64,000 nt of DNA from Alphaproteobacteria bacterium (GTDB lineage Bacteria; Pseudomonadota; Alphaproteobacteria; UBA11073): NCBI GenBank assembly GCA_965246945.1, contig CBDFFW010000001.1, positions 1,645,639 to 1,709,638 on the forward strand, written 5' to 3'. The notes beneath the pieces were generated by a model. That model was given only the letters and a program-made list of their open reading frames with translations, was not told the DNA's origin and made no database searches. How positions within the stretch are numbered: the first letter of the stretch is position 1; each line of letters begins with the position of its first letter. Positions 3,745 to 54,536 of this stretch are shown here, piece by piece. A program made the position numbers and the translations under genes.

Positions 3745-4977
3745 TTGAAAATTCTTCTTATCATCACTGGCGGGGTGGCGGCTTATAAGGCGCTTGAGCT
3801 GATCCGCCGGTTGCGTGATGCTGGCTGCGAAGTTGTGCCGGTCTTAACCGCAGGGGCCAAGCAGTTTATTACGCCGCTGTCAGTGGCCAGTTTGGCGCAG
3901 CATAAAGTTTACGATGATTTATGGTCGCTGACCGACGAAGCAGAAATGGGCCATATTCGCCTGGCCCGCGAAACCGATCTGGTTTTAGTCACCCCAGCGA
4001 CAGCGCATTTCATGGCCAAAATGGCCCTTGGCTTGGCCGATGATTTGGCGAGCACATTATGCCTAGCTACCGATAAGCCCATTTTCATTGCTCCCGCCAT
4101 GAACCCGGTGATGTGGGCCGCACCGGCCACGCAAGCGAATGTGCAAACCCTGCAAGCGCGGGGTGTGCAGTTTATAGGTCCAACCGGCGGCGATATGGCT
4201 TGCGGTGAAAATGGTGAAGGCCGTTTGGCGGAAATTGATGCAATTGTCACAGCTGTGTTGTCATCCTCAACGCGCAGCGTGAGGGATCTCAGTAACAAAA
4301 TGGCTCCCCGTGCCGATGGCGCGAAGATGACAACAATTTTGCAAGGCAAACATGTGCTGGTCACCACTGGCCCGACGCAAGAGGCCATTGATCCCGTGCG
4401 TTATCTTACCAATCATTCCAGCGGCAAACAGGGTGTGGCTATTGCCGTGGCTTTGGAGACTGCGGGTGCGCAGGTTACTCTGGTGCACGGCCCGCTGCAA
4501 ATCGCTGTGCCCAATGGTATTAAATCCATACCTGTAACCACCGCCAAAGAAATGCTGGCTGCTTGCGAGACTGCCTTGCCCGCCGATATCGCCATTTGCG
4601 CAGCGGCAGTGAGCGATTGGCAGGCCGAAGTCGCGCCGCAAAAATTGAAAAAGCGCAACGGCGAAAATACCTTAACCATGCAATTGCAGCAAACGCCTGA
4701 TATTCTCGCCGCGCTTAGCCAGCACCCAACACTGCGCCCCAAAATCGTGATCGGCTTTGCGGCGGAAACCGATGATTTGCTGGCCAATGCCCAAGGTAAA
4801 CTGATGCGTAAAGGCTGTGATGCGCTTATCGCCAATCAGGCTGGCGCGGTTTTTGGCAGTGATGATAATGAGATCTGGTTTTTAACCCCTCATGCCGCAC
4901 CCCAACACTGGCCTCGCCAAAGCAAACAGGCAATTGCCGAACGCTTGGTCGCCGCCATTATTCAACAGCTTGCTTGA
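3745..4977 (+). CDS. coaBC: Bifunctional phosphopantothenoylcysteine decarboxylase / phosphopantothenate-cysteine ligase (CoaBC/Dfp); TTG start
   Basis: N-terminal flavoprotein domain KILLIITGGVAAYKALELIRRL. C-terminal CoaB domain (HVLVTTGPTQEAIDPVRYLTNHSSGKQG). Confidence 0.9.
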   Translation: MKILLIITGGVAAYKALELIRRLRDAGCEVVPVLTAGAKQFITPLSVASLAQHKVYDDLWSLTDEAEMGHIRLARETDLVLVTPATAHFMAKMALGLADDLASTLCLATDKPIFIAPAMNPVMWAAPATQANVQTLQARGVQFIGPTGGDMACGENGEGRLAEIDAIVTAVLSSSTRSVRDLSNKMAPRADGAKMTTILQGKHVLVTTGPTQEAIDPVRYLTNHSSGKQGVAIAVALETAGAQVTLVHGPLQIAVPNGIKSIPVTTAKEMLAACETALPADIAICAAAVSDWQAEVAPQKLKKRNGENTLTMQLQQTPDILAALSQHPTLRPKIVIGFAAETDDLLANAQGKLMRKGCDALIANQAGAVFGSDDNEIWFLTPHAAPQHWPRQSKQAIAERLVAAIIQQLA

Positions 4978-4992
4978 TCTTGAGCGCGGCAA

Positions 4993-5550
4993 TTGCCACA
5001 TTCAAAGCAAATGAATACTGAAACCATGCATTCCACCACGGTGATCGCCGTGAAAAAAGACGGGCAGACGGTGATTGCGGCCGATGGGCAGGTATCGCTG
5101 GGCCCGACCATCATCAAAGATAATGCGCGCAAGGTGCGCCGCCTGGCTGGTGATAAAGTGATTGCCGGTTTTGCCGGAGCAACCGCCGATGCATTTACGC
5201 TATTTGAACGCTTGGAAAAAAAGCTGGAGCAATATCCCACCCAGCTGCTGCGTGCCTGTGTGGAGCTGGCCAAAGACTGGCGGACCGACCGTTATTTGCG
5301 CAAACTGGAAGCATTATTACTGGTCGCCGATAAAGAAACGCTGCTGATGATCACCGGCAATGGCGATGTGATTGAACCCAGCGATGGGTTGATGGCCATC
5401 GGCAGTGGCGGCAACTACGCGCTATCCGCTGGCCGCGCATTATATGATCTGGAAGGCCACACCGCCGAAGCCATCGCCCGCCGCGCCCTCAAAATCGCAG
5501 GTGAGATTTGCGTATATACCAACCATAATGTGACGCTGGAGGAAATTTGA
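4993..5550 (+). CDS. hslV: ATP-dependent protease subunit HslV; alternative starts at 5011 or 5026, with the N-terminal propeptide typical of alphaproteobacteria
   Basis: The [23 protein letters not shown] motif places the catalytic Thr after a short leader. Ntn-hydrolase family. Confidence 0.9.
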
Positions 5551-5594
5551 TTCTTAGCACGCAGAATTTGTAATCGGAAACAAAGGTTAATACA

Positions 5595-6920
5595 TTGCAT
5601 CTAATGCAATCCTTAACGCCCAAACACATCGTCGCGGAATTAGACCGGTTTATTGTCGGGCAAAATGCGGCCAAAAAAGCGGTGGCGCTAGCGCTGCGTA
5701 ATCGCTGGCGGCGGATGAGCCTGCCGGAAGATCTGCGCGCGGAGGTAACGCCGAAAAATATTTTGATGATTGGACCGACAGGTGTAGGGAAAACGGAAAT
5801 TGCGCGCCGTTTGGCCAAACTGGCCGATGCACCGTTTATTAAAGTGGAAGCGACAAAATTTACCGAAGTGGGTTATGTGGGCCGCGATGTGGATAGCATT
5901 ATCCGCGATTTGCTCGATAACGCGATTATTCAAAAGCGTGCACAACAACGCCGCAGTGTCGAAGAACAGGCCAAGGAAGCAACCCTTAACCGCATTATTG
6001 AGGCACTGGTTGGCGCGCAGGCCAGCCCAGCCACGCGGGACAGCTTTCGCAAAAAACTGGATGCCGGCGAATTGGAAGATACCGAAATTGAAGTAGAAGT
6101 GAATGATAATGGCAGTTCGGCCCTGCCCACTTTTGATATTCCTGGGATGCCAGGCGCGCAAATGGGCATGCTAAATATCGGTGATATGCTGGGCAAGGCG
6201 CTCGGCACCCGCACGCGCCGCCGCAAGCTAACCGTAGCGCAAGCGCGTGAAGTATTGGCGACCGAAGAAGCCGATAAATTGTTGGATGAAGAAAAACTAA
6301 TTAGCGAAGCCAAAACCCTGGTTGAACAAAACGGCATTGTGTTTTTGGATGAGGTCGACAAAATTGCCGCGCGCAGCGAAGGCCGCAGTGGCGGCGGTGA
6401 TGTCTCCCGCGAAGGCGTACAGCGCGATTTACTGCCGCTGATTGAAGGCACGACCGTGAGCACCAAGCACGGCCCGGTGCAAACTGATCATATTTTATTC
6501 ATCGCTTCCGGCGCATTTCATGTGTCTAAACCATCCGACTTATTGCCGGAATTGCAAGGCCGCCTGCCAATCCGTGTGGAATTAGAAGCCTTGAAGGTGG
6601 ACGATTTTAAACGCATTTTGATTGAGCCTGAACATAGCCTGCTGAAGCAATATATCGCGTTGTTAGATGTAGAGGGCGTGACGTTGACGGTGGAACCGGC
6701 CGCCGTGGACGCGCTGGCGCAACTGGCATTTGATATCAATAACAGCGTCGAAAATATTGGGGCGCGGCGTTTGCATACGGTGCTGGAAAAATTGCTGGAA
6801 GATATCAGCTTTAATGCCAGCGAACGCGGCGGCGAAGCGATTACGATTGATGAGCCATATGTGCAAGAACGCCTGGCCGAACTGGCGAAAAACACCGATT
6901 TAAGCCGGTATGTTTTGTGA
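5595..6920 (+). CDS. hslU: ATP-dependent protease ATPase subunit HslU; the start may be ATG 5604
   Basis: AAA+ Walker [16 protein letters not shown], Walker [11 protein letters not shown], sensor and I-domain. Adjacent to hslV. Confidence 0.95.
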
Positions 6921-11204: not shown

Positions 11205-11471
<267 letters not shown>

Positions 11472-11472
11472 C

Positions 11473-11895
11473 ATGAATTTTGTTTTAGACAATTCATTTT
11501 TGGTGAGTGGTCTAGTGCCCGACGAAGCACATGCTGACACCGAGTCATTATTCGAAATGTTTGAGAAAGAAAAACATAAAATTTATGTGCCTGCTGTTTT
11601 TTGGCCTGAATATTTAAATGTTATGCTGAATGCCTTAAAGAAAAATCGGATCACCATTAACCATCTAGAAAATTTCTCGGCCATTATAAATGGGTTCAAT
11701 ATTACAGTTTATATACCTTCTAATGATTTGAATTGGCACATACAAAAAGTATTGCCATTGGCCCAAAAATATAAGTTAACCGCTTATGATGCCAGTTATC
11801 TGGCAGTTGCATTGGAAACCAAAGCAACATTGGCAACGTTTGATAAAGCGTTAATGACCGCTGCAAAAGCTGCCAAAATCCCGCTTTTTATTTAA
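11473..11895 (+). CDS. vapC: VapC-like PIN-domain toxin (ribonuclease)
   Basis: Starts MNFVLDNSFLV with the first PIN acidic residue in VLDNS. Further acidic residues fit the PIN spacing (E in WPEYLN, D in TAYDASYL, D in TFDKAL). The longer ORF from 11425 seems unlikely to be real. Confidence 0.8.
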   Translation: MNFVLDNSFLVSGLVPDEAHADTESLFEMFEKEKHKIYVPAVFWPEYLNVMLNALKKNRITINHLENFSAIINGFNITVYIPSNDLNWHIQKVLPLAQKYKLTAYDASYLAVALETKATLATFDKALMTAAKAAKIPLFI

Positions 11896-19891: not shown

Positions 19892-21361
19892 ATGTTTCCG
19901 CCTGCTGATCCCACCACAGATCAAGACGATAAATTCCATGAAGAATGTGGGGTGTTTGCTGTGTGGCGGCACCCAGATGCGGCAGCGTTGACCGCATTGG
20001 GGCTGCATGCATTGCAGCACCGGGGGCAAGAAGCGTGCGGGATTATTACGCATGACCCCGCCAATCATTTACGTAAATTCCACATGCATCGTGCACTTGG
20101 CCTGGTCGGCGACAATTTCAATAAACCCAATGTGATTGCCACCCTGCCCGGCACATCTGCCATCGGTCATAACCGTTATGCCACCACGGGCGAAACCGCC
20201 TTGCGCAATGTGCAGCCGCTTTATGCCGATTTTGATTTTGGCGGCTTCGCACTCGCCCATAACGGCAATCTGACCAATGCGCTGACTTTGCGCAAAGAAT
20301 TGGTGCAAGCCGGTGCCTTATTTCAATCCTCCAGCGATACTGAAACGATTATTCAATTGATGGCGCGCAGCAAGGGCGAAGTGCCAGAGCGGTTGATTGC
20401 CGCATTGCAGGGCGTGCAAGGTGCATATTCGATTGTCGCGTTGCATGCCGGCGGCATTATCGGCGTGCGCGATCCCAACGGCGTGCGGCCGCTGGTGTTG
20501 GGCATGTTAAACGATACCTATATTATGGCATCCGAAACCTGCGCGCTCGATATCGTGGGCGCGACCTATCTACGTGATATTGAACCCGGCGAAATGGTCA
20601 CTATTAGCGAAGCTGGTTTGCAAAGCTTCAAACCTTTCCGTCCGCGCGCCAGCCGGTTTTGTATTTTCGAATATGTTTATTTCGCGCGACCCGATACGCA
20701 GCTGGAAGGGCAATCGGTTTATAACACCCGCAAACAAATCGGCGTCGTGCTCGCCGCCGAAGCGCCGGTGGATGCGGATGTGATTGTACCCGTGCCGGAT
20801 AGCGGCGTGCCGGCCGCTTTAGGCTTTGCACAGGCCGCCGGTATTCCCTTTGAATATGGCATTATTCGCAACCATTATGTCGGCCGCACTTTTATCGAAC
20901 CCACCTCGCAAATCCGCCATTTGGGCGTGAAATTGAAGCACAATGCCAATCCGATTATCATTAATGGAAAGCGCGTGGTGCTGGTGGATGACAGCATTGT
21001 ACGCGGCACCACCAGCCGCAAAATTGTCGATATGGTGCGCGCCGCTGGCGCCACCGAAGTGCATATGCGCATCACCGCCCCGCCGATCAAGCATAGCTGT
21101 TACTACGGCATCGACACGCCGGAAGAATTTGACTTGCTCGCCCATAAAATGAGCGTGGCGGAGATGACGGAATATCTGAATTTAGATAGCCTAGCCTTTA
21201 TTTCCTTAGACGGCCTGCACCGCGCCGTCACCGGTGTGCGGCGCGATATCGTCACCATGCGCCATTGCGATGCGTGCTTCAGCGGCGATTACGCCATCCC
21301 CCTGGTCGACCGCGATGTAACGAATGCCAGCGAAACGCAGTTGCGCGCTGCGCATGGGTAA
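19892..21361 (+). CDS. purF: Amidophosphoribosyltransferase
   Basis: Ntn Cys in ECGVFAV after a propeptide, PRTase motif VVLVDDSIVRGTT, and C-terminal Cys ligands for the Fe-S cluster. Confidence 0.95.
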   Translation: MFPPADPTTDQDDKFHEECGVFAVWRHPDAAALTALGLHALQHRGQEACGIITHDPANHLRKFHMHRALGLVGDNFNKPNVIATLPGTSAIGHNRYATTGETALRNVQPLYADFDFGGFALAHNGNLTNALTLRKELVQAGALFQSSSDTETIIQLMARSKGEVPERLIAALQGVQGAYSIVALHAGGIIGVRDPNGVRPLVLGMLNDTYIMASETCALDIVGATYLRDIEPGEMVTISEAGLQSFKPFRPRASRFCIFEYVYFARPDTQLEGQSVYNTRKQIGVVLAAEAPVDADVIVPVPDSGVPAALGFAQAAGIPFEYGIIRNHYVGRTFIEPTSQIRHLGVKLKHNANPIIINGKRVVLVDDSIVRGTTSRKIVDMVRAAGATEVHMRITAPPIKHSCYYGIDTPEEFDLLAHKMSVAEMTEYLNLDSLAFISLDGLHRAVTGVRRDIVTMRHCDACFSGDYAIPLVDRDVTNASETQLRAAHG

Positions 21362-21371
21362 AAGATATAAA

Positions 21372-22532
21372 ATGCCTTTTAATTTTAATGAAACCGATCT
21401 AATTGGTACGCCTTTCACATTAGGTCAACTTTATGAAGCTCAGCATATCCTAGAATATCATTTAAATGAAGTTGGCCCTGAATGGTTAAAATATCCTACA
21501 GGAGTAGTTGGTGATTATTGGAGAAAAGGAGGCACCGAGGCCATCTGCTTTTTCATCGGAATATCGTTACAGTTAAAAACTTTATTAAAAAAAACTTCAG
21601 ATGATACAAGATATTTAATTAATGAAAAATTACTCAATTTATTTAAGCAAAGAAAAAATAATCAGTTTTATGAAGCTCACATAGAATGGTCCGTATTAGA
21701 TATGATTGCTTTAAGAGCTATATCAATTGATATTGAACCTTTAAGTTTTGGCCCAGATTGTCGTGTATGCACACCATTTGGAAATTATTTTGCAGAGATA
21801 ACAGTATGTACCCCAAAAAAATTTATCTTACTAAATAACTCTTCCAAAATTTTAATAGACAGTTTTGTAGACCAAGCTAATAAAACTTTGTTTAATTCAG
21901 AAATTTTTCGTGAAATTCAGGTTACAAAATTAGGTATTTCTCAATTAATTAGTTTAAAATATAACGATGTAAAAAATATCCTTTATCAAGTTACTTTTAA
22001 TTCTACAGGTGAAATTAAAATTCCTGTAACTGACAGGACGGTTCATATTTTTTGGAATTCAGTGACTAGTTTGAAAAAAAAATTATTTTATTGGCCTGAT
22101 TCCATATTATCTTCGTCACATCATATTAAAGCGTTACAACCTCCCTTTATTTCAGAGACAAAAAAATACATTCCATTAATAGCTGTTTACACAAGTTTAG
22201 AGATTGAGCAATATTCAAACGAAATAATTAAAGCTTTATATAAAAAATTTAAAGATAAGAAATATCAACGCCAAAGTAATGAACCTTTTTACTTGATAAT
22301 GCATATGAATATTGGCAACCAAGTTAATCCTGAAGTAATTCTGAATTTGATAGACCGAAGAATTTGGCCCAATCCGACATATGATTGGATTAGTGGTATT
22401 GGACTTTATTTTCCTTCTTTTGCTTCCGAAGCCTACAAAGCACCTCCTATAATGTTTCACTCTAATAACTTTAATGCAAAACATCCTATACCTCCTGGCT
22501 GTATAGAATATTTTAATAATATGCATAATTAA
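21372..22532 (+). CDS. Hypothetical Asn/Lys/Ile-rich protein in an AT-rich islet beside the tRNA
   Basis: About 387-aa frame starting MPFNFNETDL just after the purF stop. Codon composition is strongly AT-biased relative to neighbours. No motif recognised. Confidence 0.5.
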   Translation: MPFNFNETDLIGTPFTLGQLYEAQHILEYHLNEVGPEWLKYPTGVVGDYWRKGGTEAICFFIGISLQLKTLLKKTSDDTRYLINEKLLNLFKQRKNNQFYEAHIEWSVLDMIALRAISIDIEPLSFGPDCRVCTPFGNYFAEITVCTPKKFILLNNSSKILIDSFVDQANKTLFNSEIFREIQVTKLGISQLISLKYNDVKNILYQVTFNSTGEIKIPVTDRTVHIFWNSVTSLKKKLFYWPDSILSSSHHIKALQPPFISETKKYIPLIAVYTSLEIEQYSNEIIKALYKKFKDKKYQRQSNEPFYLIMHMNIGNQVNPEVILNLIDRRIWPNPTYDWISGIGLYFPSFASEAYKAPPIMFHSNNFNAKHPIPPGCIEYFNNMHN

Positions 22533-22593: not shown

Positions 22594-22670
22594 AGGCCTG
22601 TAGCTCAGTTGGTTAGAGCGGACCGCTCATAACGGTTTGGTCGGGGGTTCAAGTCCCTCCGGGCCTACCA
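22594..22670 (+). tRNA. tRNA with CAT anticodon, either elongator Met or Ile2 (lysidine); CCA is encoded
   Basis: Manual cloverleaf: acceptor AGGCCTG/CGGGCCT, D-arm GCTC-AGTTGGTTA-GAGC, anticodon stem GACCG/CGGTT with loop CTCATAA, T-arm GGGGG-TTCAAGT-CCCTC, discriminator A, CCA. Pos1-pos72 are paired, so it is not an initiator. Confidence 0.85.
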
Positions 22671-23064: not shown

Positions 23065-24456
23065 GTGCAAAAAATTAAACTACCTATCTGGTTGCTGGTG
23101 CTGTGTCTTGCGGCGCTATCTTTAAGCTGGCAGACCGCGCATTTAAAAACCCGCACGATTAAAGATTATGATCAATTACTGTATCTGCCGATTGCGCATG
23201 ATCTAGCCACTACAGGCATATTTACCGATGGCCGGTTCACCGATTTAACCCAAAATAATGCAGGCCGTGCCGGTATGTTTATCGCCCCGCTTTATCCCGC
23301 TCTCATTGCGGGCTTAAGCAAAATGGATACTCGGCTGGCAGCCACGCTGGTCTGTTCCGCGACCAAAAGCGATCCGGCGATTGCGGAATGCCCACTTGAT
23401 TTAGGGATTTTGCGGCCGGTTCAATTAATTTTCGCAATGGTAACCTTATTGCTCCTCTGGCAAACCGTTTTTTTTATTACCAGCAGTCCTGTTGCGGCAT
23501 GGAGCGGGCTGTTCATTGCCTGTTTACTATGCCGTGACTATGCCGAATTTGCCAATGTGGCGATGACGGAGGCAATTGTTCTGCCACTGTTTGCGGCGTT
23601 TAGCTGGTCGCTGATTAAAACCATTCAACAGCAAAAATTATCGCTGGCGGCTATCACCGGCTTGCTGCTGGGTTTCAGTAGCCTCGCGCGGCCGGAATAT
23701 ATTTATTTGGCCGATGGTTTTGTGGCGCTGACACTTCTCGCCTTTATTTGCCGCCGCCCCAACTATGCCAAGTTAGCGGCCATAATTGGGCTGACTGGTT
23801 TGCTGGTTACCGCGCCCTGGCTGCTGCGTAATTGGTTATTGTTTCATACGGCGGCGATGACCGAAAGCTATGCCGGTTTTAATCTGGCCCAGCGCGTGAC
23901 CTATGAAATGATGACCTGGCGTGAATGGTGCGCTGGCTGGCTGTTTTATCTGCCGGATTTTGGCGACCGGCTGGCGCATTGGTTGTTCAATCCAGCCGAT
24001 TTCACGCGGCTGGATTATGACGGGCGGCCGGATACATTTTATCAAATTGGGTTTAAAATTACCGCGCCGGAAAGTTTGGCGGCTGCTGGCGGCGCAGCGC
24101 ACCAAGTTGGTTATTTGCTTCGCCATTATGCCCTGCCGGATCCGGTGAAATATTTGGCGGTAACGCTGCTGCTCAGCTGGCGCGGGTTATGGATTGGGAA
24201 ATATTTCAGTTTATTAACCGCCCCTTTTCTTTTGTGGTTTGGCGTGCGCAGTATTAATCGCAAAGATGCAGCAGCATTGGCCTTGTTAATCCCACCCTTG
24301 CTGTTATTAGGCTTGCATGGTGCAGTCTCCAATAATATGCCGCGTTATAATCTGATCCTGGTGCCTGCGCTGGCTACTGCCATCGGTGCTTTGCTCGGGC
24401 CATGGTTGCAAAAGCTATGGCAAAACCGGCGTAACCGTTCTAAATTAACACCATGA
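23065..24456 (+). CDS. Polytopic membrane glycosyltransferase, GT39/ArnT-like (PMT_2 type); GTG start
   Basis: About 11 predicted TM helices with an N-terminal periplasmic loop, the typical ArnT/PMT-like architecture. Family assignment comes from topology and pattern only. Confidence 0.55.
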   Translation: MQKIKLPIWLLVLCLAALSLSWQTAHLKTRTIKDYDQLLYLPIAHDLATTGIFTDGRFTDLTQNNAGRAGMFIAPLYPALIAGLSKMDTRLAATLVCSATKSDPAIAECPLDLGILRPVQLIFAMVTLLLLWQTVFFITSSPVAAWSGLFIACLLCRDYAEFANVAMTEAIVLPLFAAFSWSLIKTIQQQKLSLAAITGLLLGFSSLARPEYIYLADGFVALTLLAFICRRPNYAKLAAIIGLTGLLVTAPWLLRNWLLFHTAAMTESYAGFNLAQRVTYEMMTWREWCAGWLFYLPDFGDRLAHWLFNPADFTRLDYDGRPDTFYQIGFKITAPESLAAAGGAAHQVGYLLRHYALPDPVKYLAVTLLLSWRGLWIGKYFSLLTAPFLLWFGVRSINRKDAAALALLIPPLLLLGLHGAVSNNMPRYNLILVPALATAIGALLGPWLQKLWQNRRNRSKLTP

Positions 24457-24902
24457 TCGCTGACCCGCAAATTTCGAATATCCTGGCCCAATTATTGGCC
24501 GATACCTATGTGCTGCAGATTAAAACGCAGAATTATCACTGGAATGTGCAGGGTGTGGATTTTGCTGGCCACCACGCGTTTTTTGAACAGCAATATACCG
24601 AATTGCAAGCAGCGGTCGATGAAATTGCTGAACGGCTGCGCATGATTGGCAGCCCTGCCCCGGGCAGTATGCAGCAGTTTTTAAACTTAAAGCGTTTGCC
24701 GGAAGCCGATGGCAATGCCCGCGATGCGCAATCGATGATGGGTTTGCTGTTTATCGATCATTCAACCCTGATCGAATTTTTGCGCGCGGCGATCAAAACG
24801 TTTGAAGAAAAGAACGATCCGGGCACGGTTGATTTATTCACCGTGCGCCTCCGCGCCCATGAAAAATTCGCCTGGATGCTGCATGCAAGTATTAATCCGT
24901 AA
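24453..24902 (+). CDS. dps: DNA-binding ferritin-like protein Dps
   Basis: Ferroxidase-site residues in NYHWNVQGVDFAGHHAFFEQQYTELQAAVDEIAERL. Confidence 0.85.
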   Translation: MIADPQISNILAQLLADTYVLQIKTQNYHWNVQGVDFAGHHAFFEQQYTELQAAVDEIAERLRMIGSPAPGSMQQFLNLKRLPEADGNARDAQSMMGLLFIDHSTLIEFLRAAIKTFEEKNDPGTVDLFTVRLRAHEKFAWMLHASINP

Positions 24903-24910
24903 AACTTAAA

Positions 24911-25735
24911 ATGCGGATATTATTTTTAGGCGATTTAATGGGCCGACCGGCGCGGGAATTGGCGGCCAAAATGGTTAGGCAGTGGCGTGGGGATTGGCAG
25001 CTGGATTGTGTGATTGTTAATGGTGAAAATGCCGTCAATGGCTCCGGTATTAATAAGGAAGTGATCGACTTGTTATTGGCCGCTGGCGTGGATGTCATCA
25101 CCACCGGCAACCATGTCTGGGGGGAGCGCAGTTTGGCCACCATCATTCCGCAATATCCGCGCGTGCTGCGCCCTCTGAATTACCGTTCAGACACACCTGG
25201 CAAAGGTTCAGTATTGATTGAGACAACCAAAGGGCAGCGTGTATTGATCGCCAATCCTATTGGTCAGCGCGGCATGGATCAACCTGTGGCCAGCCCATTT
25301 AACGCGGTGGATGAGTTGTTAAAGCAATATCCACTCGGTAAAGACGTAAAGGCGATTATCATCGATTATCACGCTGAAACCACTTCTGAAAAAATCGCGA
25401 TGGGCTGGCTGTGCGATGGCCGGGCGAGTTTGGTAGTGGGTACGCATACCCATGTGCCAACCGCCGATACCCGCATTTTAACCGGCGGCACGGCTTACCA
25501 GACCGATGTCGGCATGTGCGGCGATTATGACAGTGTGTTGGGGTTAGAGTATAAACCCGTTCTCAAACGCTTTATGCATGATTTGCCGCGTGAAAAAAAA
25601 CCACCGGTGGCGAGCGGCACGCCAACTCTATGCGGGGTATATCTGGAAACAGATGACCGCAGCGGGCTGGCGAAACATGTTCAGCGTATTTGTTATGGCC
25701 CGCATTTTACAAATGCGCTGCCATCGTTTACATAA
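24911..25735 (+). CDS. ymdB: YmdB-family metallophosphoesterase (2',3'-cNMP phosphodiesterase, TIGR00282-like)
   Basis: MRILFLGDLMGRPARE, GENAVNG, TTGNHVWG motifs of the YmdB calcineurin-like family. Confidence 0.85.
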   Translation: MRILFLGDLMGRPARELAAKMVRQWRGDWQLDCVIVNGENAVNGSGINKEVIDLLLAAGVDVITTGNHVWGERSLATIIPQYPRVLRPLNYRSDTPGKGSVLIETTKGQRVLIANPIGQRGMDQPVASPFNAVDELLKQYPLGKDVKAIIIDYHAETTSEKIAMGWLCDGRASLVVGTHTHVPTADTRILTGGTAYQTDVGMCGDYDSVLGLEYKPVLKRFMHDLPREKKPPVASGTPTLCGVYLETDDRSGLAKHVQRICYGPHFTNALPSFT

Positions 25736-25741
25736 AATAGC

Positions 25742-26143
25742 ATGCCCCGCCCTATTGTCTTCACCCCGCCGCAAATTAAAGTGAAAGCCGTCAACGGCAA
25801 AGGCCGGGGCGTGTTTGCCACGCGGGATTATGCGAGTGGTGAATTGATCGAAACCTGCCCTGTGCTGTTATTCGATGCAGCGCAAACCGAGCATTTCGAG
25901 AACACGGATTTATGGCATTATTTGTTCAACTGGGATGAAGAAACCGGCCAGCTGGCACTGCTATTCGGTTATGGTATGCTGTATAATCACAGCTTCAAAC
26001 CCAATGCCCGCATGGTGCACGACCACGCCAATGAGCGGACCGAGGTGTATGCCGAAACGGATATTAAAATGAGTAAAGAAATTATGTTAAATTATTTAGG
26101 CGAACCGGATGCTACCGGTGAGCTGTGGTTTGAAATGGCTTAA
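25742..26143 (+). CDS. SET-domain protein (putative protein-lysine methyltransferase)
   Basis: GKGRGVFAT (SET-N GxG), YNHSFKPN (NHS/C motif), and a C-terminal ELWFEMA-type post-SET tyrosine/aromatic region. At 133 aa it is a minimal SET domain. Confidence 0.75.
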   Translation: MPRPIVFTPPQIKVKAVNGKGRGVFATRDYASGELIETCPVLLFDAAQTEHFENTDLWHYLFNWDEETGQLALLFGYGMLYNHSFKPNARMVHDHANERTEVYAETDIKMSKEIMLNYLGEPDATGELWFEMA

Positions 26144-26710
26144 TTATAGTATTAAATCTTTTGCTTGATGTCTTTTCAAATATGTTCCCCGCATGCGCAT
26201 AATTGCTATTAGCGCTATATAACCTGCCAGATGGGCAACTATATCTTTAGGATCAAAAGAGCCATTATCTAGGTTATATTTCTGCGCGAATTCTAGAATG
26301 ATACAACCAATTAAATATGGGGATTTTTTAACTGGCATTTTAGGTTCTGTGTATTCTTCTATATCTGTTCGACAAAAAATTTTTTCATTAATTATCTTAG
26401 AAGTGTTTAATTTCGCACGCGACAGCTCCCAAACTTTTCCGATTGTAATAGCACTAAAGGGCAAAGCAATAATTGCCGAGAAATCAGCTAAATAATTGCC
26501 AGTTAAATTTACATCTAAGCCAATTCCTTCGTGCTGTAAAAAATTAAAGATAACCTCATTACAATGACGCGCTAACTGCTGTTCAAGTATATTGCCCATG
26601 CGGCAACCACATAACCGACCAAATATAGTTAACGCACAAAACGTGCTTGCTATGCTGGCCTCAAAGCCAATAACATCATTTGTAAACTTCAAAGAACTTT
26701 GTTTCTTCAC
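26144..26710 (-). CDS. Hypothetical protein (AT-rich gene)
   Basis: Uninterrupted 188-aa frame, no motif recognised, AT-richer than ligA next to it. Confidence 0.4.
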   Translation of the reverse strand: MKKQSSLKFTNDVIGFEASIASTFCALTIFGRLCGCRMGNILEQQLARHCNEVIFNFLQHEGIGLDVNLTGNYLADFSAIIALPFSAITIGKVWELSRAKLNTSKIINEKIFCRTDIEEYTEPKMPVKKSPYLIGCIILEFAQKYNLDNGSFDPKDIVAHLAGYIALIAIMRMRGTYLKRHQAKDLIL

Positions 26711-26771
26711 CTATTTATTATCAATTTGATCAGCCGTTAAGGCAAATACTTGCAAACAAATACCTTTAATT

Positions 26772-45637: not shown

Positions 45638-47638
45638 GTGATGAGCGACTCGGGCGCCCGTCCACGTGTGCGGCGTTTTCATATTGAGCTGGATAACCCG
45701 CTGCCTGCGTTTAATCAGGGCGGGGCGCAGGCTTATGCGGTCACCAATAACACCGAATACCGCGATACGATTTATGCCTTGTTGTGCCCCAGTAATATGC
45801 CATTGCGTTTGGAAATGGGCATATCCCTGCAAAATACCACCACTCACCATTTTCATAATTTAATCGATTTCGAAATCGTCCATGGCAGTGGTTTGACGGA
45901 AGAATATATGGGGTTGATCCTGCCCAAACCATTGGGCCGGCCGCTAGTGGCCGATCTCAATACCCATTTCATCCCCTGGAAGGAAGAGGAACTGCGGCAA
46001 TATCTGATTAAGCCGATGGTGGAAGTGCTAAATACCTTGCATGACCGTGTTTTATCGCATGGCAGTATTTCGCCGCTGCAAATGTGGCGGGAAGGTGCGG
46101 CACAACCGGTTAAACTAGCGCAATGCTTCACCACGCTGCCTGGGTTAAATCAGCCGGTATTTTTTGAAACCATCGAACGCGCCATTGCCCAACCCTTTGC
46201 CAAAGGGGACGGGCGTACAGAAGACGATTTGTTCAGCTTGGGTGCCACCATTTATTTTTTAGCCGTGGGCCGTAACCCCCTGGCGCATCTATCGCCTGAA
46301 GAATTAATCAGAGCGCGCATGGAAATCAGCACGCCGGTTTTGTTGTTAAACACCGCGCGCGTGCCCAGCAGTTTATCTGAACTGGTAAAGGGTTTGTTAT
46401 CGGATCAACAGCGTTCACGCCTGACGATCCGCGATGTGATGGATTGGTGCGATGGTCAGCGCCTGGTGCCCAAACAACCGGTTTCCGTTGGGAAAGCCAA
46501 ACGCAGTATCATTTTTAACGGGCAGGAATTTCTAAAACCAACATTATTGGCGCAAGCGCTGGCCAGCGCGCCGGAAGAAGCCATTAAATTTGTTTTGGGC
46601 CCTGATTTTCTACGCTGGTGCCAACGCAGCGGCGCCATTGATGTTGCGCTATATCAAAAATTGGCAGAGGTGTTGGGCAGTTCCGAAAATGGTAAATCTC
46701 CGGCGGTGACCTTAACCCAGGTGATTGCCTGTTTAGATCCCGCCGGCCCTTTGCGTTATAAAGAATTTAGTTTTGGCCTGGCTGGTATTGGCACCGCTGC
46801 CATGCTCGCATTTTTACAAAACAACGCAAATTTAAAAAACGCCGTGGCAGAAATTGTGCAGAGCGATTTGCCCAGTTTTTGGGCCGGCCTGCCCGGCAAC
46901 AGTTTTGCGTTTAACACCACCATTGCCCAGGAATTATCGGCGCTGCGCCATTTAATTACGCAAACCCAGCCAGGTTATGGGTTGGAGCGCATGCTGTATA
47001 CGCTGAATCGGCAATTGCCTTGCCAATCCGAAACCTGCCATGGTTTTTATGCCCTGCAATCGCGTGATTTATTACGGGCCTTGGATGGTTACATTCAAAA
47101 AGGCCAGCGCCCACAGGAATTGCTGGACCGGCATAGCGCCGCATTTTTAGGCAGCCGCCATAACAGCCGGTCGGATGAAAATTTGCTGAAATTGCTTAAT
47201 CCCAGCCAGGAATTGGGTGAGCGGCGCATTGGCCTGTTGAAGTTACTGGCGACCCTGCAAGCGCGGTTTAAACTGGGGCCGTTAACCCATTTAACCGGCT
47301 GGCTGGCCGAATTGGTGCGGCCGTCTTTGGATAATTTACACAGCCAAACCATTAAAGAAGACATCGCCAAGTCTTTGCTGCGGGTCGCCAAACATGGTGA
47401 TTTGAACGAATTGCTGGCCTTGCTGGATAGCGGCAGTTTGCAATTGCGCGATCAGCGTTTATTTAAAAGCGCACGCCAAGAATATCAAAATTTGCAAAAG
47501 CAAATTAACGAGATCGATCAATGGGTCGCGCAAAAAGATGCGCTGGGCCATGCCGTCGGCCGGCAAGTGGCCAGTGTTACCGCTGTGGTTCTGGCGCTGT
47601 TAGCCACAGTGGTTATCATGCTGGCACAGAAATTTTAA
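45638..47638 (+). CDS. Tail-anchored membrane protein with an N-terminal degenerate protein-kinase-like (pseudokinase) domain
   Basis: Residues ~20-270 follow the Hanks kinase subdomain order with catalytic residues replaced. Beta3 RDTIYALL lacks the Lys. The catalytic loop is HGSISPLQM in place of HRDxKPxN. The Mg site is QCF in place of DFG. An activation and P+1 segment FFETIERA is followed by DDLFSLGATIYFLAVGRNPL, the subdomain IX signature. The C-terminal helical region ends in a TM helix VASVTAVVLALLATVVIMLAQKF. Confidence 0.6.
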   Translation: MMSDSGARPRVRRFHIELDNPLPAFNQGGAQAYAVTNNTEYRDTIYALLCPSNMPLRLEMGISLQNTTTHHFHNLIDFEIVHGSGLTEEYMGLILPKPLGRPLVADLNTHFIPWKEEELRQYLIKPMVEVLNTLHDRVLSHGSISPLQMWREGAAQPVKLAQCFTTLPGLNQPVFFETIERAIAQPFAKGDGRTEDDLFSLGATIYFLAVGRNPLAHLSPEELIRARMEISTPVLLLNTARVPSSLSELVKGLLSDQQRSRLTIRDVMDWCDGQRLVPKQPVSVGKAKRSIIFNGQEFLKPTLLAQALASAPEEAIKFVLGPDFLRWCQRSGAIDVALYQKLAEVLGSSENGKSPAVTLTQVIACLDPAGPLRYKEFSFGLAGIGTAAMLAFLQNNANLKNAVAEIVQSDLPSFWAGLPGNSFAFNTTIAQELSALRHLITQTQPGYGLERMLYTLNRQLPCQSETCHGFYALQSRDLLRALDGYIQKGQRPQELLDRHSAAFLGSRHNSRSDENLLKLLNPSQELGERRIGLLKLLATLQARFKLGPLTHLTGWLAELVRPSLDNLHSQTIKEDIAKSLLRVAKHGDLNELLALLDSGSLQLRDQRLFKSARQEYQNLQKQINEIDQWVAQKDALGHAVGRQVASVTAVVLALLATVVIMLAQKF

Positions 47639-47648
47639 GGGACAAATC

Positions 47649-48122
47649 ATGGCCAAAGAAAAAGCCGCAAAACCGGTTAAAGCCGGTGCCGAAAATAAAA
47701 CCGGTATGGCCTGGCTCTTGGTCTGGCCGATTATTTTGGCGATGAGTGCGGTTTTCCCGCCGCTATTTATTTTCGTGGCCGGGGTGATCCCCACTTTGGT
47801 CGCGCGGTTTGTCGATCCCCATCCCGAACGCTCGCTCACCGTTTGTGCCGGCGCAGGCAACGCGGTCGGCTGCGTTTACTGGCTGATCTGGACAGTCACC
47901 CATCAATATTTAAGCTGGCAAAGCATTTTGGGATTAATGTTATTGCCAACCACCTGGTTAGTTTTGCTCGGCGCAACTGGCGCGGGCTGGGTGGTGTGGC
48001 TAATAATACCGTCCATGGTATCCGCCCAGGTAACTCAGCATCAACTGGCCATACGCGCACGGCTGGTCAAAGCCCAAGAGAAAATGAGCAAAGAATGGAA
48101 TCAAGGCATCAATGCGCCTTAA
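47649..48122 (+). CDS. Small polytopic membrane protein (about four TM helices), translationally coupled to the pseudokinase gene
   Basis: Begins 10 nt after the upstream stop. Hydrophobic segments AWLLVWPIILAMSAVFPPLFIFVAGVIPTLVA, VGCVYWLIWTV, ILGLMLLPTTWLVLLGATGAGWVVWLII. Confidence 0.5.
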   Translation: MAKEKAAKPVKAGAENKTGMAWLLVWPIILAMSAVFPPLFIFVAGVIPTLVARFVDPHPERSLTVCAGAGNAVGCVYWLIWTVTHQYLSWQSILGLMLLPTTWLVLLGATGAGWVVWLIIPSMVSAQVTQHQLAIRARLVKAQEKMSKEWNQGINAP

Positions 48123-48170
48123 TAAAGTCGTTTTTCATCTTTAAACAACATTTTTTAGCCTTAATTAAGT

Positions 48171-48198
48171 TGACAATATGGTATTAATTTTTATTATC
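48171..48198 (+). promoter_or_regulatory. Putative sigma70 promoter for the Tat-lipoprotein gene
   Basis: TTGACA, a 16-nt spacer, TATTAT. It lies ~30 nt upstream of RBS AAGGAG and the ATG at ~48229. Confidence 0.4.
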
Positions 48199-48228
48199 TA
48201 TATTAGACAACCATTAAGGAGAAACAAA

Positions 48229-49170
48229 ATGACTAGCGAAAAAATTAATTTAACAAGAAGAAAAGTCTTAGTATTATCAGGCGTCGGCCTTGTATCACTG
48301 CTAACTGGTTGTGGTGGTAGCACAAAAACAGTTAACAATTATCCTCCTGCAACAACAATATCTCCAAATTCAAATAGCAATGCCAATTCGAACCAAGCCC
48401 CCTCTATAGCTTCCATCGATAAAACCAATACCCGTTTGCAAAGCTTAATGGGCCAAAGTTCAACCGACTCCGTTGCGGTGCAAATGCAAGCGCGTGATAC
48501 TGTGATTGCTTATCAAAATGACATTGATGCTGTAATCCGGCCTGCTTTTACCGGCAATGATCCAAATCATAATTTAAGTGCATTGAAAGCGCTCACTACC
48601 ACAAACAAAACATCAATTATTATTACTGTGGAAATAGATCCAACTGATCCATCGGTGACCTTTGACGGTCAGCAAACTGTGCATTTTGCCGCCAGTGCTG
48701 TTCATTATAATATTTCGGCAGATAATGAATTCGCTTCAGGCGCCAAAGATGCCGAAGACTTTACTGACCATGGTTTAGTTGTTCGCATTAATAAGGGATT
48801 CCCAGGCGTAAATTATTATTATGATGATATTTACCAAGATAACCGCACTGGCGATCCGACCGATCGTGTTGAACGGCATACTGCCAATCTTCTTGTGGCA
48901 ACCCCTAATTACATTGAGCAAGGTGCACGCTTTAATAAATATTCGGCGAGCGAACAAAGACAAGCTTTGACTGGGGTAATAAAAATTTTGGAGGCTGTGC
49001 AAAATGGCAAAATCAAGTTGAATGCAGATAACACAGTCACCATGAATGGCCAAACCAGCAGAACACTGACACTTAGCGCCAAAGACGTGGGTGTCGAAAT
49101 CGGCTTTGGCAAAATCAGTGGTACTATTTCTAAAACAATGTCAGCATTGCCGTTATCATTTAACGGGTAA
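48229..49170 (+). CDS. Lipoprotein with a twin-arginine-like signal, Asn/Ser/Thr-rich
   Basis: MTSEKINLTRRKVLVLSGVGLVSLLTGCGGS gives a TRRKVL Tat-like motif plus lipobox LTGC. Low-complexity NSNSNANSN linker, then a globular domain. AT-rich. Confidence 0.55.
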   Translation: MTSEKINLTRRKVLVLSGVGLVSLLTGCGGSTKTVNNYPPATTISPNSNSNANSNQAPSIASIDKTNTRLQSLMGQSSTDSVAVQMQARDTVIAYQNDIDAVIRPAFTGNDPNHNLSALKALTTTNKTSIIITVEIDPTDPSVTFDGQQTVHFAASAVHYNISADNEFASGAKDAEDFTDHGLVVRINKGFPGVNYYYDDIYQDNRTGDPTDRVERHTANLLVATPNYIEQGARFNKYSASEQRQALTGVIKILEAVQNGKIKLNADNTVTMNGQTSRTLTLSAKDVGVEIGFGKISGTISKTMSALPLSFNG

Positions 49171-52272: not shown

Positions 52273-53502
52273 ATGTTTAAAATCATCACCCTGGCAATAG
52301 TAACCCTGTTGCCAGGGTTTGTTTTTGCGGCGGATAATCCAGCCAGTGATACCTGTTCTGAGCTGCAGCACAACATTCAATTACTCGATGATATTGGTAA
52401 GTTACGGCCTAAACAAACGAATAAAGCGGCGATCAATGCCAACAATGATATAACCGATTATATCGGCCAATCCCGTAGCACCTTAACTGCAGCGCTTGAT
52501 GCGGCGCAAAATTGCGAAGATGCCAATCGCGTGGAACGGGCGTTGCAGCATTTAAGCTGGGCGGCTTATTGGCTACATTATGATACGCATGTGCCAAGTG
52601 ACGCGCAAACCATGTTGCGCGCGACCACTGATTATTTGGCCGTGGCCAAGGAAATTATCCAGCATCAACCCGAAGTGTTAACACCCGCATTTTATCACAG
52701 TGATTTCCGACAAAATTTGGATACGGTTTATAAATACCGCACCATTGCATTGCAGGCGCTTGGCCAACCAACGGCAGTGACTGCAATTTTGGCGGAACAG
52801 GCGCAAATGGGCTTTTGTGCCGCCCAATGGCGTTTGGCCGAAAATTATACGCGTGCGCAGCAAAATCAACTGGCAGCGCAAACCTATCAAACCATGCTGC
52901 ATAATCCGGCCTGCCGCAGCAGTGACAGCACCAATCATGATTTTGCCATGCCTGGTTTGCGGCTGGTTTATTTATATGAAAAGATGGGACAGCCGGAAAA
53001 CAGCGCAGCGGCTTTGCAAAAACAATTTGCCATTAATCAGGCCATGACCAAACAGATCGGTTGCGGGAGCGCGGCACCGCCTGGTGAGTTCGAAACCATT
53101 TACCGCTTAGCGGCAATACAAGCAAAAAATAAACCTGAACAGGCGTTTGAGCTTAGCCAATATGGTTTGGCGCGCGCTACTGTCAGCAGTGAATTTGCCG
53201 ATAGCAAACGACAAGCTGTAGATGAAGTGGCGCAACCTTCATGGCAAAAACTGAAAAATATATGGTCTCGCTGGACCCATAAAGCCGAACCTGGCGCTGG
53301 TTATGCGCATGAATATTTGCCAAAGCTGAATAAGCTAAAACAAAATTTAGCCGCCAAATTGCCGCTTGAAACACAAACCCGTTTAACTATACAAGCCACT
53401 GTGAAAGCGTTAAATAGTTGTGCAGATGGTTTAACCGATCCGCAATGGCTGCAGCAATACGATCCGGATTATCAGCCTTTTATTCCAGTTCCAGAAGAAT
53501 GA
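52273..53502 (+). CDS. Secreted hypothetical protein, probably helical-repeat
   Basis: Signal peptide MFKIITLAIVTLLPGFVFA. 409 aa, Ala/Gln-rich helical segments. No catalytic motif recognised. Confidence 0.45.
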   Translation: MFKIITLAIVTLLPGFVFAADNPASDTCSELQHNIQLLDDIGKLRPKQTNKAAINANNDITDYIGQSRSTLTAALDAAQNCEDANRVERALQHLSWAAYWLHYDTHVPSDAQTMLRATTDYLAVAKEIIQHQPEVLTPAFYHSDFRQNLDTVYKYRTIALQALGQPTAVTAILAEQAQMGFCAAQWRLAENYTRAQQNQLAAQTYQTMLHNPACRSSDSTNHDFAMPGLRLVYLYEKMGQPENSAAALQKQFAINQAMTKQIGCGSAAPPGEFETIYRLAAIQAKNKPEQAFELSQYGLARATVSSEFADSKRQAVDEVAQPSWQKLKNIWSRWTHKAEPGAGYAHEYLPKLNKLKQNLAAKLPLETQTRLTIQATVKALNSCADGLTDPQWLQQYDPDYQPFIPVPEE

Positions 53503-54536
53503 TCAAGCTGAGTATTCAGCCAACTTAAAGCTTTTTCCCTGGCCCCGATGCCTAATAATTGCGTGGTGTGTTGGCGCACCAAGGCCAGTAGCCAAGGTTG
53601 CTGCTGCAATGTTAAACGCCAGCTTTTATCTCTCAGCAGGTTACGGCGATAACCGTGATTAAACAGCCAATGTTGTTGCCAGATAGCCCAGGTTTCCGGC
53701 GGTAATTCCGGCAATGCGGTTTGCCAAGCCTGCAACAAACCGGCGATACAGTGCGCCAGTTGCTGGTCGGTTTGGGTCTGGCCCCAAAATGGGATTTTTA
53801 ATTTTTGCGGTGGGCTGGTTTGCGGTTCCGCAATCCGGCGTGGCAGGGTAACAGTTTTGCTGTTTATATTTTCTGAATGTTTAGCGTTAATCAAATCAAT
53901 ATTAGGCGTCCCTACCACTGGCCGCATTGGGGCAAAGGGTAGCAAATGTTCCTGCAAAGCCGCGTGCATGGCCACACCCGCATGCTGGCTGCGGCGCGAT
54001 TTGATATTGGGCATCACCAAGGCTGACGCCACATCCGCCGCCGTAAACCCAAAATCATGCGCCGCCGCTGGCAAGGCATGATCATAAGGATGCGCCAGTG
54101 CTTTCATTTGCGGCTCCCCCTCCATAATCCGCCAGCTGGCCAAATGGAGCGAGCGCCAGCCGATATAATCGGCCAATTCCGGTTGATAATGCAGGCTGGT
54201 GGGACGGCTGTAATGCGCCAGGCTGAGTTGGTTCAGGCGGGAAAAACTATCAATTTCATCCGTTGGCGCACACAGCAAATGCAGCACCGCCTGGTTTTCG
54301 ATCCAGCTGGGCCAATGCAAAATAATTCGCAGCAACCGCTGATCAACCCGCGTAATGCGCGCCAGCGAATGGATTTGCGTGGAGGTAATAATAGCCAGCG
54401 GCGCGCCATCTGGTTTAACCGCCAATAAGACCCCGCGCAAAGTGCCGGTGCCTGCCATGGCTAATTCATATTCCAAACTTTCCCGCTGGGCGAAAGTGAA
54501 ACTTTCTGAAACAGCGAGATGGGTGGGCTTAGGCAC
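53472..54536 (-). CDS. Hypothetical protein; its 3' end overlaps the convergent gene by ~31 nt
   Basis: Uninterrupted 354-aa frame. No motif recognised. Divergent from guaB. Confidence 0.45.
   Translation of the reverse strand: MPKPTHLAVSESFTFAQRESLEYELAMAGTGTLRGVLLAVKPDGAPLAIITSTQIHSLARITRVDQRLLRIILHWPSWIENQAVLHLLCAPTDEIDSFSRLNQLSLAHYSRPTSLHYQPELADYIGWRSLHLASWRIMEGEPQMKALAHPYDHALPAAAHDFGFTAADVASALVMPNIKSRRSQHAGVAMHAALQEHLLPFAPMRPVVGTPNIDLINAKHSENINSKTVTLPRRIAEPQTSPPQKLKIPFWGQTQTDQQLAHCIAGLLQAWQTALPELPPETWAIWQQHWLFNHGYRRNLLRDKSWRLTLQQQPWLLALVRQHTTQLLGIGAREKALSWLNTQLDHSSGTGIKG

Follow-up and report, generated by a model that had tools for sequence, protein, structure and literature searches.

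We describe here a short gene for a SET-domain protein in a 64,000-nucleotide (nt) stretch of DNA, referred to as a whole as the window, from an alphaproteobacterial assembly (GCA_965246945.1, contig CBDFFW010000001.1, positions 1,645,639 to 1,709,638 of the forward strand). Judging from its sequence and predicted fold, the gene encodes an apparently active, stand-alone SET protein-lysine N-methyltransferase of the minimal type represented by vSET, Set7 and Go1-SET. It lies immediately downstream of ymdB, and the two genes form a unit that has been kept through several changes of surroundings in the clade to which the protein belongs. We consider it probable, with moderate confidence, that the protein is a cytoplasmic lysine methyltransferase made together with YmdB, acting on an endogenous bacterial protein in a housekeeping role. 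The ymdB-SET pairing was not found in the searchable literature, where we looked for ‘SET domain’ and ‘YmdB’ within one paper, and it amounts to a modest new observation on a known enzyme family.

SET follows ymdB throughout its clade

In the window the two genes share a strand and a reading frame. The gap of 6 nt between them is exactly that given in the preliminary description of this DNA, which was made from the sequence alone.

24911..25735, + strand: ymdB, a metallophosphoesterase gene (TIGR00282/PF13277; Pfam YmdB match at E 1.3e-91)
25733..25744, + strand: ymdB-SET junction, TAA-aatagc-ATG, 6 nt, same reading frame (from the sequence)
25742..26143, + strand: gene for a SET-domain protein-lysine methyltransferase of the minimal type, 133 amino acids (aa) plus stop (open reading frame (ORF) call, Pfam SET, AF2 model and Foldseek)

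The ATG of SET is the first start codon past the in-frame ymdB stop, and no Shine-Dalgarno-like sequence was found at the junction. The two closest relatives of the SET protein, at 84% and 68% identity (loci L001 and L002), are likewise encoded directly after ymdB. The same adjacency is present in L083-L087, L089 and L090, of which L083 (a 1.93 Mb contig) and L084 were found through YmdB, while L085, L086, L087, L089 and L090 are the best metagenome matches to SET. For L088, the eleventh sequence of the SET clade, the contig is not long enough to include the upstream gene. In all ten clade loci with readable upstream DNA, the junction consists of TAA, 5-9 nt and ATG on the same strand, and a Shine-Dalgarno-like sequence is absent from it in each case. 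A stop codon followed after a short gap by ATG is the classic layout for translational coupling, and its recurrence in 10/10 loci suggests that ymdB and SET are translationally coupled. The tight coupling noted in the preliminary description thus stands, but its significance had been under-read, as ymdB is the only conserved association of SET in the clade.

The pair occurs in three genomic contexts. In the window and in L001, the order is a PMT-like gene, dps, ymdB and SET, followed by a convergent ligA, and in L001 dps and ymdB are separated by an additional ORF of 262 aa. In L002 the order is tetR, ymdB, SET and a parA-like gene. The third context, in L083-L090, comprises polyprenyl synthase/two methyltransferases, zapA, 6S RNA, the 5-formyltetrahydrofolate (5-FTHF) cyclo-ligase gene (ygfA), ymdB, SET, yebC and ruvCAB. 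Here, in the larger subclade, the 6S (SsrS) RNA was located between zapA and the 5-FTHF cyclo-ligase gene in L085 (2388-2549) and L090 (1653-1816), and was undetected at the gathering threshold in L083, L084, L086 and L089. Other Alphaproteobacteria have the series zapA, 6S RNA, 5-FTHF cyclo-ligase and ymdB, the RNA being detected in L165 and L167. Among the loci with downstream DNA, neither the Bosea locus nor one other metagenome-assembled genome (MAG) has a SET gene after ymdB; in a third set the contigs stop at ymdB. Nor was ymdB found near SET in about 150 other SET loci. Clustering of about 780 neighbouring ORFs from 164 loci brought out no neighbour conserved across the family. The recurrent neighbours are lineage-specific: Methanosarcina has a permease-like gene, and this clade has ymdB. 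In the best neighbour-joining tree the ymdB-linked SET proteins form one clade (bootstrap 93/200) with subclades at 200/200 and 193/200. The simplest history would be a single insertion of SET behind ymdB in an ancestor, vertical inheritance afterwards, and relocation of the pair as a unit in the window lineage.

Upstream of the pair, the window carries two further genes, the first of which overlaps the start of the second by 4 nt.

23065..24456, + strand: ORF for a PMT_2-like membrane glycosyltransferase (PF13231, E 3.8e-5, below the gathering cut-off)
24453..24902, + strand: gene for a Dps-like ferritin (PF00210, E 4.8e-26; NCBIfam Dps model below its cut-off)

The PMT_2-like ORF is the probable first gene of a local PMT-dps-ymdB-SET string, between whose genes no terminator-like site was found on the + strand. 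SET had been described as lying beside both dps and ymdB; the adjacency to ymdB is correct, whereas dps is one gene away. By tblastn, L001 is the one locus besides the window with Dps near the pair; dps is missing from the surroundings of the eight further linked loci, and the PMT-like ORF likewise adjoins the string in the window and L001 only. Dps was considered and rejected as a conserved partner on these grounds, and in L001 a gene separates it from ymdB. Because dps lies directly beside ymdB in the window genome only, its adjacency is a lineage-specific coincidence and provides no evidence on function.

The window YmdB matches the B. subtilis YmdB structure (4b2o) at E 4e-65. The SET-linked YmdB proteins differ at 18 clade-specific positions, among them an Arg-to-Lys change at residue 230 (residues 229-230 correspond to nt 25595-25600), which is Lys in nine of ten SET-linked proteins. 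Of 115 unlinked YmdB proteins, 97% have Arg there, and the residue aligns with a conserved Arg of B. subtilis YmdB. In the model of the protein, this residue lies in a coil (224-232) of moderate confidence between a helix (214-223) and a strand (240-247). Since lineage-specific substitutions are expected in any clade, the change is only a weak lead.

An apparently active minimal SET enzyme

The SET protein had been described as 133 aa long with three motifs, and all three are present, namely GKGRGVFAT (residues 19-27), YNHSFKPN (81-88) and ELWFEMA (127-133). The segments of its gene that encode conserved elements are as follows.

25796..25822, + strand: GKGRGVFAT, GxG motif for binding of AdoMet, residues 19-27 (family alignments)
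25982..26005, + strand: YNHSFKPN, NHS cofactor and pseudoknot motif, residues 81-88 (159-sequence set)
26078..26095, + strand: EIMLNY, from E113 to the catalytic Tyr118 (invariance and alignment with vSET)
26126..26131, + strand: W129-F130, C-terminal aromatic pair resembling a post-SET region (159-sequence set)

The Pfam SET profile (PF00856) matches residues 21-118 over 104 of its 105 positions with an E-value of 7.1e-14 and a score of 52.5 bits, well above the 22.4 bits of the gathering cut-off, so that the assignment to the family in the preliminary description is borne out. This is the only Pfam domain in the protein, which is acidic (pI 4.9) and has one Cys; a hydrophobic N-terminal segment was looked for in it and none was found. 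At 133 aa, and without Cys-rich pre-SET and post-SET regions, a large i-SET insert or any other domain, it fits the minimal stand-alone type.

Conservation was assessed in a 33-sequence family alignment and in a larger set of 159 sequences (11 SETs of the ymdB clade and 148 others). G21, R22, G23, V24, F25, E37, G76, G78, Y81, N82, H83, N88, A104, E113 and Y118 are invariant in the smaller alignment. In the larger set Y81, N82, H83 and Y118 are kept in 159/159 sequences, and the careful alignment of the NHS and Tyr residues that had been proposed as a check therefore leaves them unsubstituted. G21, G23 and E113 are kept in 158 of the 159 and R22 in 116 of the 148 unlinked sequences; S84 completes the NHS motif in the window protein (Y81-N82-H83-S84). 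The C-terminal aromatic residues are less uniform, with W129 kept in 134/159 and F130 in 118/159. Position 111 of the window protein is Ser in place of a nearly invariant Gly, a change seen in this one sequence and lying outside the catalytic motifs. Tyr118 aligns with Tyr105 of vSET, where the Y105A/F mutants are catalytically dead (PMC3510492; bioRxiv 10.1101/2021.05.04.442453).

Searches against solved structures gave the same assignment. By sequence, the best matches are S. pombe Set7 (5h6z, E 6.8e-13), vSET of PBCV-1 (1n3j, 5e-8) and Plasmodium PFL0690c (4rz0, 1.2e-7). The AF2 model built from the 33-sequence alignment has a mean pLDDT of 87.5 and a pTM of 0.78, with the last ~13 residues weak; this C-terminal tail is modelled at pLDDT 46-66, and its W129-F130 pair may become ordered only upon binding of cofactor or substrate. 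In a Foldseek search of the model against the PDB, vSET was the best match (E 3.7e-11, target-normalised TM 0.87), with Set7 (0.78-0.81) and PFL0690c close behind; the TM-scores range over 0.70-0.87 for vSET and 0.73-0.81 for Set7. MLL1, SETD8, SUV420H and NSD2 follow after the minimal SETs, and the best 50 of 399 matches (E <= 0.001) are all SET-domain enzymes. The predicted catalytic competence of the protein follows from the Pfam match, the fold match, the retention of all residues invariant in the family and the equivalence of Y118 with Y105 of vSET.

One position sets the ymdB clade apart from the rest of the family. Position 91 (nt 26012-26014), eight residues past His83, is Met, Ile or Leu in 11/11 clade members, while 127 of the 148 other sequences have an aromatic residue there (Tyr, Trp or Phe). 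Product specificity in SET7/9-type enzymes is set by a Phe/Tyr switch, which presumably lies around this position. The aliphatic residue may alter the methylation product specificity, which we regard as a weak lead.

The gene also behaves as a resident of its genome. On sequence comparison with its two closest relatives, it is under strong purifying selection, because non-synonymous change is low (pN 0.09-0.19) while synonymous change is saturated (pS 0.77-0.92). A chance ORF was considered and is ruled out by the Pfam E-value (7e-14) together with the low non-synonymous change against saturated synonymous sites. Backbone-like GC had been claimed for the gene, and its GC and GC3 (0.490 and 0.567) are indeed comparable to those of ymdB (0.518 and 0.545) and ligA (0.522 and 0.533). 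Acquisition as part of a horizontally transferred island is rejected for SET on the strength of this match, the two low-GC patches nearby being separate features. Association with a defence system or phage was also rejected, as PADLOC and PHROG searches with SET and YmdB gave no match.

Relatives of the SET protein and the host

In a scan with one genome for each GTDB species, relatives of the SET protein turned up in at least 599 prokaryotic species, and the clade of the window is not among the matches listed. The best of the GTDB matches listed reach at most 48% identity and belong to Saprospiraceae, other Bacteroidota, Methanosarcina, Methanoculleus, Patescibacteria, Actinomycetota, Chlamydiota, Planctomycetota and Bacillaceae, and most of the best-matching relatives listed are environmental. 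Among these matches, the nearest relatives outside the clade belong to Patescibacteria, Bacteroidota and methanogens. A HMMER search over 1.84 billion cluster representatives gave 3,100 matches at E <= 1e-3 and 782 at <= 1e-10, each match standing for a cluster at 50% identity. Many relatives are tandem SET-SET proteins of ~260-320 aa (P0341-P0349 and others with two matched stretches), which may be covalent versions of a vSET-type dimer. Others are fusions of SET to a GNAT acetyltransferase, a class I methyltransferase, an ATP-grasp domain or an EamA transporter (P0370, P0377, P0388, P0398, P0486).

This distribution does not agree with two general premises of the preliminary description. SET domains had been called a eukaryotic invention, but they are present in the prokaryotic species and ~3,100 clusters given above, and SET genes have been reported in more than 500 bacterial genomes, free-living species included, with a prokaryotic origin of the fold being argued (PMC3980110). 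Bacterial SET proteins had also been said to occur mostly in pathogens and symbionts as effectors, whereas relatives of the window protein are widespread in free-living prokaryotes. The effector premise mirrors the choice of SET proteins for study (PMC10117894) rather than the distribution of the genes.

The similarities of two window proteins place the host among uncultured Alphaproteobacteria. The identical SET protein is recorded on one contig of 1,794,760 bp, which points to a small genome. LeuRS has 69% identity to its counterpart on the 1.93 Mb contig of L083 and ~61-62% to ‘Alphaproteobacteria bacterium’ MAGs, Azospirillum and Magnetospirillum (best named matches), and YmdB has ~52% identity to Hyphomicrobiales.

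Comparison with characterised SET proteins

The closest functional parallel comes from Methanosarcina mazei. Go1-SET, like the window protein, is a stand-alone enzyme of ~120-135 aa that lacks pre-SET and post-SET zinc clusters and shares all the motifs, and its reported substrate MC1-alpha is an endogenous DNA-binding protein (PMC3980110). SET proteins of the genus have 39-43% identity to the window protein over residues 12-133, that of M. spelaei reaching 41% over 122 residues without gaps. The differences lie in the substrate and the locus: MC1 is archaeal, and the Methanosarcina loci lack ymdB and have a recurrent amino-acid-permease-like gene instead. At position 91 the ymdB clade departs from the mostly aromatic residue found elsewhere in the family.

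Among solved structures, vSET (PBCV-1 A612L, a histone H3K27 methyltransferase) is the best structural match, with 29% identity, the same minimal architecture and Tyr105 in the place of Y118. It differs in being viral, in targeting host histone H3, in lacking the 10-residue N-terminal extension and in its unrelated genomic setting. S. pombe Set7, the best sequence match (query residues 4-119), is a eukaryotic histone methyltransferase of 169 aa with ~30% identity.

Secreted SET nucleomodulins (Legionella RomA/LegAS4, Chlamydia NUE/cpnSET, Burkholderia BtSET and Bacillus BaSET) share the SET catalytic domain, and Bacillaceae homologues have 37-42% identity to the window protein. These nucleomodulins are exported by type III or type IV secretion systems (T3SS or T4SS), RomA carries a nuclear localisation signal (NLS), and cpnSET also methylates a bacterial histone-like protein (PMC10117894). 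The window protein differs from them in having no evident signal peptide, no domain besides SET, a place in a housekeeping operon and no sign of a host. When nucleomodulin traits were tested, there was no extra domain and no sign of horizontal acquisition, and the nearest out-of-clade relatives listed were prokaryotic.

A protein methyltransferase gene next to the gene of its substrate is seen in prfA-prmC and fliC-fliB, which provides a lead only. These enzymes have folds different from SET, and methylation of YmdB is a hypothesis only.

Other features of the window

Housekeeping and biosynthesis set the scene among the window ORFs scanned. Pfam identifies functions including LeuRS, HisRS, CysK-like, AccD, PurF, PurA, GuaB, SHMT, CoaBC and UbiE, as well as SucCD, SufBD, HslUV, GrpE/HrcA, Fpg, a Kdo transferase and two-component systems, so that de novo purine, cysteine, CoA, Fe-S and TCA pathways are represented. 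Among the ~45 ORFs of the 64 kb that were scanned with Pfam, several of which are without any match, no secretion-system gene was found.

Two patches of low GC lie near the pair. A 402-aa ORF (21324-22532, + strand) with GC 0.30 and GC3 0.22, compared with a backbone of ~50% GC, overlaps the 3′ end of the purF-like gene just upstream of tRNA-Met(CAT) (22594-22670). It has no Pfam, PADLOC or PHROG match and looks like a foreign insertion at the tRNA. The second patch (26144-26771; GC 0.35, GC3 0.29) lies between the stop codons of SET and ligA and includes an ORF of 188 aa (26144..26710, - strand) that starts with GTG and matches no family. Because its equivalent in L001 is just 144 bp long, with REP-like hairpins, the patch would be a lineage-specific insertion of ~500 bp. 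In L001 ligA itself (4635-6653, - strand) appears as separate ORFs, 414 and 248 aa long, which is probably due to an assembly frameshift and not a true split, since the contig name suggests ~3x coverage.

Farther away, the segments 45638-49167 and 52273-54536 hold five consecutive or nearby ORFs (666, 157, 330, 409 and 354 aa) without a Pfam match, the 666-aa ORF having only weak PADLOC matches (mad6 and PD-T4-6, E ~1e-4). A PIN-domain ORF at 11425-11895 (+ strand; PF01850, E 2e-8) possibly encodes a VapC-type toxin.

Proposed role and alternatives

In the role that we consider probable, termination-reinitiation at TAA-(6 nt)-ATG would keep production of SET at a fixed ratio to that of YmdB, and SET would thus act in the YmdB pathway. 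The protein would be soluble, acidic and cytoplasmic, and probably a homodimer, given that vSET is dimeric and that relatives occur as tandem SET-SET fusions. AdoMet would be bound in a pocket formed by GxG, NH and Y81, and Tyr118 would serve in methylating an endogenous bacterial protein at the epsilon-amino group of one of its lysines. Candidates for the substrate are, in order of preference, YmdB or a YmdB partner and then a basic nucleoid or ribosome-associated protein. 6S RNA and dps are both tied to stationary phase or stress, and a role in late-growth adaptation fits with these two contexts of the pair. That SET is dedicated to methylating its operon partner YmdB, with the K229/K230 loop as candidate site, or a direct partner of YmdB, is a narrower proposal that we regard as quite unlikely. 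For vSET, the description as dimeric is taken from the title of Manzur et al. 2003, as cited in PMC10117894. Endogenous targets have precedents in Go1-SET, which methylates MC1-alpha, and in cpnSET, which methylates Hc1 (PMC3980110, PMC10117894).

An alternative raised in the preliminary description is that SET is a secreted nucleomodulin, which a type III or IV system would deliver into a eukaryotic host, such as a protist, for methylation of histones there, much like RomA/LegAS4, NUE, BtSET and BaSET. The closest solved structures are histone methyltransferases, the genome is small (1.79 Mb), the functionally studied bacterial SET proteins are all reported as secreted (PMC10117894), and Go1-SET and others methylate eukaryotic histones in vitro (PMC3980110), all of which would suit such an effector. 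The window gene itself offers no positive support for it. The gene has backbone GC and appears to be vertically inherited across the clade at the tail of a housekeeping cluster, and the protein has neither a Sec-type N-terminus nor an extra domain (an NLS-like basic patch was not separately sought). Likewise the window ORFs scanned include biosynthetic genes and no secretion genes, and the closest out-of-clade relatives listed are from Patescibacteria, Bacteroidota and methanogens. The acidic pI, the lack of a hydrophobic N-terminus, the single domain, the housekeeping window and the free-living relatives together point to a cytoplasmic and endogenous role, and the conserved link to ymdB suggests housekeeping inside the cell over a secreted weapon against a host. 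We infer that SET is not a horizontally acquired, secreted histone-modifying effector, a role to which we give a decidedly low probability.

The preliminary description also offered a nucleoid-modifying role, in which SET would methylate Dps or HU and its position near dps would reflect that activity. The precedents of MC1-alpha and Hc1 speak for this idea (PMC3980110, PMC10117894), as does an acidic SET protein suited to basic substrates. Also in its favour, the window has dps, ymdB and SET closely packed in a single string, and the dps and 6S RNA contexts of the pair are both associated with stationary phase. The Dps part of the argument is weak, however, as the linkage is confined to the window genome and, with an intervening gene, L001, and is missing from the other eight linked loci. 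The Dps of the window is also a poor candidate substrate because it is acidic (pI 5.4), with only 5 lysines and none among its first 20 residues. Furthermore, no nucleoid-protein gene recurs near SET in the 164 loci. This role is unlikely in our judgement, and another nucleoid protein such as HU as substrate would belong with the endogenous role preferred here. Far less likely still is a pseudoenzyme, with a non-catalytic SET fold serving for example as a binding module for YmdB: the Ser at the nearly invariant Gly position 111 and the low-confidence C-terminal tail could be taken that way, but all cofactor-binding and catalytic residues are kept and are invariant across the family, and G111S is confined to one sequence outside the catalytic motifs.

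Several points weigh against the preferred endogenous role coupled to YmdB. All functionally characterised bacterial SET proteins have been reported as secreted (PMC10117894), and the host genome of 1.79 Mb is small. The DNA examined makes up 3.5% of that genome, so secretion systems or signs of host association may be present elsewhere. Gene adjacency indicates co-expression, which does not amount to a common pathway, even in B. subtilis YmdB has no known physiological substrate (PMC6123443), and the bootstrap value for monophyly of the ymdB-linked SETs (93/200) is only moderate.

Significance

If the link between ymdB and SET is one of co-expression only, the gene would be a matter of ordinary annotation. 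Bacterial SET proteins have been studied almost solely as weapons against host chromatin, and thousands are found in free-living prokaryotes. A clade in which SET is locked to ymdB is a possible entry point both to the endogenous function of minimal SET proteins and to the role of YmdB. Should SET prove to be a dedicated modifier of YmdB or of a direct YmdB partner, no earlier SET-domain enzyme would have had a regulatory role and a defined endogenous bacterial substrate outside chromatin.

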